Of a DNA stretch of 64,000 nt, positions 24,801 through 27,800 are shown one piece after another. The stretch is from assembly GCF_054482525.1 (NCBI RefSeq), contig NZ_CM137006.1. One strand, given 5' to 3'. Position 1 is the first letter of the stretch, and each line of letters begins with the position of its first letter. Position numbers: made by a program.

Positions 24801-27800
24801 TCCAGAACGGGCAGGCAAAATAGAAGTGCTATCCGGCAGCTTCTTAATGAATCCAGTTCAAAGCCCTGTAAAGGAACAAGCCGCTTTTGCTGTAAAAAAC
24901 GTTCGGCAAGAGTGACTAATTTGCTTTGTTCCTGTTCCGTCAGACACGTTAAAAGGGGGATCGATAGTGCTTCCTGCCAGGGAAGGGCAGTTTGATGTGC
25001 TGATTCTTGTACTTTCCAGGGCCACTTAATCATCGTTTTGCTCGCAAACTCGTCACTTGAACAAAATTGCACGGACAGGGACTGTTAAAATGCCAAATTT
25101 CCTGGCATCATGGCAACCATCTGAACGGAGAGATGCCGGAGCGGCTGAACGGACCGGTCTCGAAAACCGGAGTGGGGGCAACTCCACCGGGGGTTCAAAT
25201 CCCCCTCTCTCCGCCAAAATTCAATCACTTACACATCATTAAGTCAGTGACAAAAATCACACTTGGAATTACTTGGAATATTTTCTTGGAATATTTTCAG
25301 GTAACGGGACATCAAGTGTTGGTGAAACTTTAACCTTCCTGTCATAGATTAGCACTTGCCCTTCGGTTTTGTGACCAGAGAAAAGTTGCTTATCCCGGCT
25401 GCTTCCTTCATAGTCTGAAATTCCTTTCGCCTTCAGATCATGAAAGGTGAAGTCGGTTAAAATACCTGAAATTTTTCCAGCACGATTTCTTGCATCTACC
25501 CACATTTCGTTAAAGCCTTTGTACATATATCGGTTGCCGTATTGATTGCTGATCACATAGGCAGATTTTGGCAACTGTTTTGCTTTTTCGATCGCTGCCT
25601 GTAATCGTGGACTCCATGCTTTTATCTGTTTTTTTCCGGTTTTCCCTTGCTGGATGAATATCCCGTCGTTTCCAATCTGTTCCCATTTCAGCGATAACAC
25701 ATCGGAAACCCTCGCTGCACACAGATAGGCAATTTCCATTGCGATAAAAACAGGAAGAGGTGCAACGCTTAATACTGCCTGGTATTCTTTGTCGGTTACA
25801 TATCGTTCGCGGTTTTTGGCCTTGAATTTACTTACACCTGCACATGGGTTAGCCTTCACGTACCCTCGCTCATACCCCCAACTGTAAACACGGGACATAC
25901 TGCTTTTTTCATGGTTGGCTTGCGTTTTACTCTGCTCCCCTCTTTTGTCCATGTATCGACGGATGTGTTCTGGTTTTATGGAATCCGCTGGTACCTTACC
26001 GAATACGGCAAGCAACTTTTTTTGATGTTGCAGATAATCTTTTTGTGTTCTTGGACTAAGGTCACTGTAATAGGCGCTGGCGAGGAATTTTTCCCACAAG
26101 CGACCGAATGTCATTGCACGATCGCGATTATTTACAGTTTCCTCATACTTTTTCCATAAAGCAGCTAAACCATCCTTGATGGCGGTTAGTGTGACAGATT
26201 CTCTGGATGTTGGTTTCCATACATAACTATATTTATTTGGGTATACATTTGGAGGTAATTTTTCGTGTTCAGGATTTTTCCTTCGTCTTCCCATCAGATC
26301 GCACCAAAATTCGGCTCTACCTCGCGTGGTGGTAAAGTTTTATTGCAGGTAAATAGATCCCGGCTGACAATCGGTTTGCCACTACGATTGGTATAGAACG
26401 GAAGCCCGTTTTCCATTAACCATTTTCGCTGGTGGCTTGCATATTTGCAGCCCGTTAATATTAGCAATTCATCTTCGGTTAAAAATAAGCTGCTCATAGC
26501 TATATCTCATAACCGCCGCTAACTATATACGGTTAGCGGCAATTAGGGTTGAACATTAAAAATCAGCCTGACTCGGGATCAGTTTTTGCCAGATAGCTGA
26601 AACGTATTTTGCCTGGTAACGAGCGTCATCAAGTGCATTATGGCGCTCACCTTCGAATGGAATAGCCGTTCTGGCATCGAAGTCTATGGCTTTCCCCAGC
26701 TCAACGATTGTGCGTACATCGCGATCGTTGTAGTAACGCCACGGGCAGGGGATCCCCTGCCGTTCGTATGAACGGCGCAAAATCGTGTTGTCGAAGTTGG
26801 CTCCATTTCCCCAGACCTGAACAAAAAATTCACCGGAGTTTTCGTCGATAAATTCCCGCAATTGTAACAGTGCATCATCTAACGGGATTTCATCGGTCAT
26901 AATGGCAGATTGCGCTTCGCGTGATTGCTTAAGCCACCATTTAATGGTGTCCCGATCAATGACTCCGCCAGCAGTTTCCAGATCGATAGTCTTACTAAAT
27001 TCCGGTCCCATATCTCCGGTTTGCGGATCGAAAAATATTGCACCTATTGAGATGATCGGGGCATCAGGATTTTTTCCCATGGTTTCAAGGTCGATCATTA
27101 GATGGTCACACGTCCTGCTGGTGGATGTGATTTCGTGATGACCGTTCACCTTAATTGGGTGATCTGCCGTCTCGCCAGTTTCATTATCGCTATTGTGATG
27201 CTGATTGCCGCCAGTGTTCTCCTTGTGTGGATGTTCAGCGCCTTCCATTTCCTCCGGATCATCTTCCTGAACTTCAACCTGATACTCTTCATCGAATGTT
27301 TCTTGGTATGTTGCGTCGCCCATCACCGCGCCACAATCAGGGCAGTTGCCGCCGCCGGTCTGACCGCAGGCGGTGCAGACTTTTTCCACTTCCTGTTGCG
27401 CCACTGGTTCAGGCTGTTTCGTTTCTGGCTCGTTTTGTAACGCATTTGTGCTGTTTTGTTCCGCTTTTTGGTAGTTCCGTTCCGATTCATGCTGGTTCTG
27501 GTTCACAGAATCGCGGGTCTGGATCCCCTTAACCCATTTCGGATCATTCGGGTCACTAATCCCTTCAACAAATTCACCACGTGATGCAGCAAGCAACTTA
27601 TCGGCGTCAGGCTGGCTGATATTGGCTGCCTGCATAATTTTGTTTACTTCGTCAGCGGTAACTTTTATCGGCTCTGGTTGTTCTGAATCTTCAGCGGTAT
27701 CTACATTTTGCGGTAAGCCCGTGTATGTGCCATTTTTTCGGGCAAAATATTCTTCTTTTGTGATTTCAGTGGCGCCAGCAGCCAGTGCCTTATCCAGACC

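Follow-up and report, generated by a model that had tools for sequence, protein, structure and literature searches.

The 64,000-nt stretch of contig NZ_CM137006.1 analysed here (RefSeq assembly GCF_054482525.1; hereafter the window) carries an ordinary, apparently complete lambdoid prophage of about 40.1 kb, integrated in serU, the Escherichia coli gene for tRNA-Ser(CGA). We put the probability of this reading at roughly 0.95. The anatomy of the left attachment site (attL) can be read directly in the window, and the empty site (attB), the right site (attR) and the phage site (attP) were each found in relatives. Integration at the anticodon loop of tRNA genes and the use of serU as an attachment site in E. 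coli are both established knowledge. The element is a standard prophage in a recognised tRNA attachment site; its novelty is nil, and it holds nothing new for phage biology. The label lambdoid is given to it provisionally on gene order, the classical definition being the formation of viable recombinants with lambda.

Attachment sites in the window and in relatives

An intact target tRNA gene is present at one end of the element (25127-25216), and a tyrosine integrase gene, int, adjoins the attachment site. The int stop codon occupies 25269-25271, and the 52 nt at 25217-25268 separate int from the 3′ end of the tRNA. An earlier interpretation made from the sequence alone (the sequence-only reading) had described this 52-nt gap, an int gene read toward the tRNA, and an excisionase gene, xis, overlapping int. 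All of this was borne out, the overlap amounting to a single base, and the coordinates and descriptions given there for the three genes agree exactly with ARAGORN and the calls of open reading frames (ORFs). Its placement of attL over the 3′ end of the tRNA also held, with the identity block reaching from the second base of the anticodon stem (25155) to the CCA end (25216). Position 25155 marks the left boundary of the prophage.

A search allowing up to 3 mismatches found the tRNA 3′ end only once in the 64-kb window; attR was therefore sought in relatives. Strains 405 and XH992 are both 100% identical to the window over 60000-64000, and XH992 is 99.99% identical over 48000-64000. In both strains, the end of the tail-fibre gene is followed by a 95-aa ORF and then by a 62-nt copy of tRNA-Ser (anticodon stem to CCA). 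This direct repeat lies 1,230-1,291 nt past the equivalent of window position 64000, i.e. at about 65230-65291 in window numbering. Beyond it stands the same sequence as in K-12 downstream of serU, followed by yodB (XH992) or zinT (405, where no yodB is annotated). In LR-60, both ends occur in one locus, 40,142 bp apart. The displaced tRNA fragment is thus found in direct orientation at the far end of the element in 405, XH992, and LR-60, a place that falls outside the window for the present genome. The predicted unit for the window element is 40,075 bp (25155 to about 65230), and its right end would fall at about 65291, 1.3 kb past position 64000. The expectation that attR lies beyond 64000 as a repeat of the tRNA 3′ end thereby stands for the near-identical relatives, from which the attR of the window genome itself is deduced.

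The unoccupied site is represented by K-12 MG1655, with the order yodB-serU-mtfA-asnT-yeeJ and no insert between yodB and serU. Among 5426 complete E. coli genomes, 3856 (71%) have an unoccupied serU site, and 811 (about 15%) carry at least 80% of the mtfA-serU-int-xis-exonuclease segment.

Seven IMG/VR contigs match exactly a pattern spanning the P arm, the tRNA fragment, and the P′ arm. According to BLAST, all seven join the end of the tail-fibre gene straight to 25155 and on to int, xis, and the exonuclease gene, with the breakpoint exactly at 25155, and they contain the fragment only, without a complete tRNA. The order in metagenomic contig L009 is tail fibres, the 95-aa ORF, attP, and a 341-aa int. 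Near int, the attP contigs are 93-98% identical to the window and hence represent relatives, not the window element. Judging from these attP-form contigs, phages of this family occur in an unintegrated configuration.

Two further candidates for free phages providing attP, vB_EcoS-689R5 and vB_EcoM-606R7, were rejected, as their records hold mtfA, asnT, and even yersiniabactin genes. The entries ON470583.1 and ON470580.1 are deposited as 'Escherichia phage ... partial genome' and contain mtfA, tRNA-Asn, serU, and yersiniabactin genes; because of these host genes, we regard them as prophage predictions with chromosomal flanks and not as phage genomes.

A hybrid tRNA gene

Only two positions distinguish the 62-nt copies, and these form a pair in the long variable arm (GTGGGG...CTCCAC vs GTAGGG...CTCTAC). 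The G..C pair was found in seven of seven attP sites (P arm plus P′ arm; the viral contigs) and at attL (5′ half of the tRNA plus P′ arm) in all five lysogens, the window included, whereas the A..T pair was found at attR (P arm plus host flank; three of three) and at the single attB, the empty K-12 site. This pattern had no exception across all loci compared. It marks the resident tRNA gene as a hybrid: by sequence comparison, its 5′ part comes from the host and its 3′ part from the phage, and the DNA to the right of the exchange point is all phage. Strand exchange is bounded on the left by the start of identity (25155) and on the right by the first position that differs between phage and host (25174), and is therefore confined to 25155-25173. 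Both versions of the tRNA fold as the same cloverleaf (-42.6 and -40.6 kcal/mol). A scan for promoters and terminators near attL gave no signal above shuffled expectation.

A phage lying beside serU by chance, or using a site just downstream that leaves the tRNA untouched, would also have an intact tRNA gene next to it, with int beginning 52 nt beyond. The comparison of attachment sites has already refuted this explanation, to which we assign next to no probability: the 62-nt tRNA segment is part of attP and is duplicated at attR, and the 3′ part of the tRNA is the phage allele in five out of five lysogens. With integration into serU as the favoured reading, 25155-64000 is best annotated as one mobile element and serU as an intact host/phage hybrid gene.

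Putative arm-type repeats and proposed mechanism

In the P′ arm, CTTGGAAT occurs as three direct repeats, of which the two rightmost correspond to a 13-nt tandem unit within the 3′ end of int. The P arm of attR and attP holds two more copies, one direct and one inverted. Copies of CTTGGAATA in the 64-kb window are confined to the P′ arm, and copies of CTTGGAAT in the 28-kb locus L002 are confined to the P arm. All five CTTGGAAT copies (attL region of the window plus L002) are located within about 120 nt of the core. The repeats are kept in seven of seven attP sites, even amid diverged flanks. They represent putative arm-type sites for Int on both arms. The tandem unit, CTTGGAATATTTT, is present twice (25272-25297) in the last int codons, where it doubles as putative P′ arm-type repeats. 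Its copy number is variable, an extra unit being present in the attP contigs L013 and L014, which alters the C-terminal tail of Int.

Integration would proceed by lambda-type site-specific recombination. The attP of the phage would carry the 62-nt tRNA copy from the anticodon stem to CCA, and Int would bind core sites made by the symmetric anticodon stem as well as the CTTGGAAT arm-type sites on both arms, the latter via its lambda-like N-terminal domain. Strand exchange, presumably across a 7-nt overlap, would take place in or beside the anticodon loop. The outcome would be attL at 25155-25216, with a tRNA rebuilt from host 5′ and phage 3′ parts and its function kept; the displaced host 3′ fragment would form attR beside yodB, about 1.23 kb past the window end. 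Excision would require Int and the DUF4224 excisionase, and induction is expected via RecA-stimulated self-cleavage of the CI-like repressor with its S24 domain.

This model predicts a copy of CGGTCTCGAAAACCGGAGTAGGGGCAACTCTACC...CTCTCCGCCA past 64000 and before yodB or zinT. The end of the tail-fibre gene and the 95-aa ORF are predicted to be followed by a P arm with CTTGGAATATT and an inverted copy, then by CGGTCTCGAAAACCGGAGTAGGGGCAACTCTACCGGGGGTTCAAATCCCCCTCTCTCCGCCA, CTTTATCAATGACTTA, and yodB or zinT. The expected attP junction is GTATCAT/CGGTCTCG...CCGCCA/AAATTCAATC (slashes mark the junctions).

Integrase and integrity of the prophage

Int scores 44.7 bits on Phage_integrase (PF00589; gathering cutoff 27.1), with further matches to the central and the N-terminal SAM-like integrase domains, and its residues 1-313 align with lambda Int structures (E = 1e-12). 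Its active-site residues are R195, K218, H285, K288, H308, and Y317, every column agreeing with the family consensus. The identical 341-aa protein heads a cluster of 1013 members; homologues measure 329-346 aa. The C-terminal KYSK motif is retained in homologues down to about 60% identity, and the 341-aa frame is collinear to that end.

The position of Arg II (R311 in lambda) is occupied by Lys288, whose codon lies at 25431-25433 on the - strand, and it is Lys in 120 of the 120 homologues retrieved. As far as these alignments reach, this abundant enterobacterial Int family is a natural Lys-II group. According to PMC2943603, Arg II reaches 99.1% conservation in tyrosine recombinases and Lys occurs there naturally in only a few cases; the Cre mutant R292K keeps its activity, with slow or less efficient ligation.

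Several observations weigh against the favoured reading. These include (i) the Lys in Int at the near-universal Arg II, given the lowered ligation efficiency of the equivalent Cre mutant (PMC2943603); (ii) the annotation of int as 'frameshifted' by the Prokaryotic Genome Annotation Pipeline (PGAP) in XH992, where it is identical in sequence, with the int of LR-60 also flagged; (iii) the location of attR past the window end, its presence in this genome being deduced from near-identical relatives; (iv) the phage-collection records with this int, all of which are prophage regions with host genes and not virion genomes; and (v) the mosaic nature of the element, no complete E. coli genome matching the whole prophage (or its middle 25 kb) above about 98.3%. 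The ends of the element resemble XH992 and the 30.6-35.9 kb segment resembles LR-60.

A cryptic prophage at serU, giving neither excision nor particles because, for instance, its integrase is impaired, attR is lost or it has a defect invisible at the ORF level, is an unlikely but not negligible alternative. It would account for the flagged int, for an attR not visible within the window, and for a phage collection without a virion-derived genome bearing this int, and it is in keeping with the 97.7% identity between the early-left region and its counterpart in Qin, a defective prophage of K-12. Yet the 341-aa Int is collinear with its homologues as far as KYSK with all catalytic positions at consensus, and this 341-aa Int is also the one encoded by the attP-form contigs. 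No module is missing, the ORFs are of full length and sized as in relatives, and attR is kept in the closest relatives.

As for the flag itself, the PGAP model of int ends at 25244, precisely where a reading frame short of one 13-nt CTTGGAATATTTT unit would terminate. The DNA of the XH992 int is identical to that in the window. Most likely, the flag reflects variation in repeat number, the reference protein probably having a different number of CTTGGAATATTTT units; no repeat-number variant that would explain it was found among 120 cluster representatives. A frameshifted int was rejected in view of the collinearity with homologues to the conserved KYSK, the family-consensus active site, and the occurrence of the identical protein in the 1013-member cluster. 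The evidence favours an intact int, as judged from its reading frame.

In a host with a single tRNA-Ser(CGA) gene, lysogeny would exchange the 3′ two-thirds of that gene for the phage allele, turning an A-U pair of the variable arm into G-C, and it would bring in an Int that always has Lys at Arg II. The long variable arm is the main identity element for seryl-tRNA synthetase. It is nevertheless very improbable that either feature has a functional consequence. If one did, a very common E. coli prophage family would offer a natural test case; possible effects would be an altered charging or stability of tRNA-Ser in lysogens, or a Lys-II site tuned to a long-lived covalent intermediate and hence to controlled directionality.

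Gene content

The lambda-like module order is complete (int-xis, early left, repressor-cro, replication, nin-Q, lysis, head, tail), and all ORFs are intact, with the lengths that PGAP annotates in close relatives; the final tail-fibre gene (from 63512) runs off the end of the window. Coordinates are listed in Table 1. Scans with Pfam, PHROG, and Rfam revealed no backbone gene inside the element, in agreement with the sequence-only reading, which had seen phage organisation as unbroken to the window end. Thus, the interruption by backbone genes that could have spoken against a prophage is absent, and the downstream repeat of the tRNA 3′ end is present in the near-identical relatives.

serU also hosts non-phage islands in extraintestinal pathogenic E. 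coli, CFT073 being a strain with such an island. A non-phage genomic or pathogenicity island at serU with some phage-like genes, as in uropathogenic strains, is nonetheless practically discounted for the window. The gene content of the element already refutes it: genes for terminase, portal, protease, capsid, tail, lysis, Q, replication, and immunity are all there, they follow the lambda order, and a cargo block is absent.

Among the scanned prophage ORFs, neither stx nor type III effector genes were detected, unlike in the serU prophages of Shiga toxin-producing E. coli (STEC). A homologue of N did not turn up among the scanned ORFs either, in scans that included no search aimed at N. DicB, a cell-division inhibitor, the DicF small RNA (sRNA; the two spanning 29309-29723), and hok/sok (34784-35108) are nearly identical to their versions in Qin, and an apparently intact prophage hence supplies the same host-acting genes that are known from a cryptic one.

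The four phage tRNA genes are located between Q and the holin gene. The CAT tRNA is classified as Met by ARAGORN and as tRNA-Ile by PGAP (XH992). Related prophages have only two or three of the four tRNAs (LR-60: Ile, Thr; 689R5: Met, Thr, Gly). QueH is an epoxyqueuosine reductase, i.e. a tRNA-modification enzyme, on a phage that also bears tRNA genes. A gene with a YfbU domain (41183-41722, - strand) stands between the lysis cassette and the HNH/terminase genes, a typical position for a moron, and is kept in relatives.

Table 1. Coordinates of the serU attachment region, the prophage genes, and the adjoining chromosomal genes in the window
Feature	Position	Strand	Evidence or remarks
serU, tRNA-Ser(CGA)	25127-25216	+	ARAGORN; Rfam tRNA model 57 bits vs gathering score 29
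attL core, 62-nt block common to attP and attR, 60/62 identical to attR	25155-25216	+	Pairwise and multiple alignments
Interval holding the strand-exchange site (anticodon stem-loop)	25155-25173	+	Deduced: identity boundary to first polymorphism
Anticodon loop CTCGAAA	25159-25165	+	Stem arms (C)CGGT and ACCGG flank the loop
P′ arm with three direct CTTGGAAT repeats	25217-25297	.	Repeats at 25262-25269, 25272-25279, 25285-25292
int, lambda-type tyrosine integrase, 341 aa	25269-26294	-	Pfam PF00589; lambda Int alignment
xis, excisionase (DUF4224), 67 aa	26294-26497	-	Pfam PF13986; PHROG phrog_1266, E 3e-21
Early-left operon	26556-30679	-	Pfam, Rfam; 97.7% identical to K-12 Qin ydfA-ydfE block
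823-aa 3′-5′ exonuclease, C-terminal Rv2179c-like domain	26556-29027	-	Pfam
ydfD-like and ydfC/B/A-like small ORFs	within 26556-30679	-	Pfam; Qin identity
dicB	29309-29497	-	Pfam
DicF sRNA	29672-29723	-	Rfam 76.7 bits
Immunity switch	30875-32268	.	Pfam, PHROG
CI-like repressor, HTH_3 and Peptidase_S24	30875-31522	-	Pfam
Cro-like	31619-31846	+	Pfam
CII-like/YdaT	31843-32268	+	Pfam; PHROG CII-like
Replication and nin-like region	32334-38328	+	PHROG, Pfam, Rfam; also Ren-like DUF977, DUF968
Replication initiator/helicase loader	32334-33410	+	phrog_3729, E 2e-257
QueH	34030-34716	+	PF02677, E 1e-65
sok/hok	34784-35108	+	Rfam sok 110 bits
RusA	37283-37642	+	Pfam
Antiterminator Q, upstream of lysis genes	37633-38328	+	PF06323, E 9e-92
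Phage tRNA cluster, four genes: CAT (Met/Ile2), Lys-TTT, Thr-TGT, Gly-TCC	38523-38832	+	ARAGORN; Rfam
Lysis cassette: holin, YdfR, lysozyme (39758-40291), Rz-like	39124-40755	+	PHROG holin; Pfam Phage_lysozyme; PGAP of relatives
Packaging and head: HNH, small terminase subunit TerS (P27 family), large terminase subunit TerL, portal, S78 protease, HK97-type major capsid, connector/completion proteins	41861-49574	+	Pfam; PGAP in relatives
Lambda-type tail: tube, G/T chaperones, tape measure, M, L, K, I, J, Lom, tail fibres	49583-64000	+	Pfam; PHROG tail fibre
mtfA	24236-25072		Uninterrupted ORF; collinear with K-12
tRNA-Asn	24060-24135	-	ARAGORN
yeeJ	15135-23822		Uninterrupted ORF

Comparison with known elements

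The element shares with phage lambda the order attL-int-xis-early left with int directed toward attL, an Int alignment that begins in the arm-binding N-terminus (MGRRR..LPPN.Y) and extends into the catalytic domain, and repeated putative arm-type sites on both arms, with the P′ sites overlapping the 3′ end of int. It differs in its target, a tRNA gene as opposed to the intergenic gal-bio site, in the length of the identity block (62 nt vs 15 nt), and in having CTTGGAAT arm sites, a DUF4224 Xis, and Lys in place of Arg II.

The principle of islands in tRNA genes (tDNA islands) is described in PMC4383910. Class A, centred on the anticodon, makes up about half of the mapped tDNA islands in Islander (PMC4383910), and the interval 25155-25173 fits this class. 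As in other class A elements (Williams 2002; Hudson et al. 2015, PMC4383910), the regenerated tRNA gene has a tyrosine integrase gene beside it, and the displaced 3′ fragment, known here from the near-identical relatives, begins at the anticodon stem; the two lie at opposite ends of the element. Nothing substantive separates the window element from this class, of which it is a typical member.

serU is the site of lambdoid, effector-carrying prophages in STEC O145:H28 (PMC7067040) and of Shiga toxin (Stx) phages in STEC negative for the locus of enterocyte effacement (PMC8065619). The likeness to these prophages is in the chromosomal locus and the general phage type.

With Qin, the element has in common the ydfA-ydfB-ydfC-dicF-dicB-ydfD-exonuclease block (97.7% identity), hokD (98%), lysozyme (92%), and ydfU and essQ (about 83%). 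In contrast, Qin resides at ydfJ, its intQ is disrupted, and its head, tail, and replication genes are lost, whereas the window element is complete. The two also differ in their integrase and immunity region. Lambdoid phages with HK97-type heads (phi467, Evi, PhiR49_2, and Shigella phage SfIV) are 95-98% identical from terminase to tail tube. Their genomes do not match the int-xis segment, which points to other integrases and sites in these phages.

Chromosome left of the prophage

To the left of serU, the backbone is uninterrupted through mtfA, tRNA-Asn, and yeeJ and collinear with K-12, as had been concluded from the sequence alone. The yeeJ ORF spans about 8.6 kb and, counted from the first start codon, 2895 aa, compared with about 7.0 kb in K-12 and XH992. 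Identity is only 88% over part of its length. These differences suggest variation in the Ig-like repeat region.

A remnant of a tRNA-Asn gene, comprising only its last 16 nt (CCAGTCAGAGGAGCCA), is found at 8801-8816. At this place, between yeeO and yeeN, XH992 has a complete tRNA-Asn annotated by PGAP, which from its position we take to be asnW. The DNA left of 8801 (1-8800) is non-collinear and encodes a 1393-aa Rhs protein (3729-7910, GC about 59%), a 200-aa ORF, and a 238-aa integrase-like ORF (929-1645). The region 1-8816 resembles the terminal part of another island, one inserted at an asn tRNA gene.

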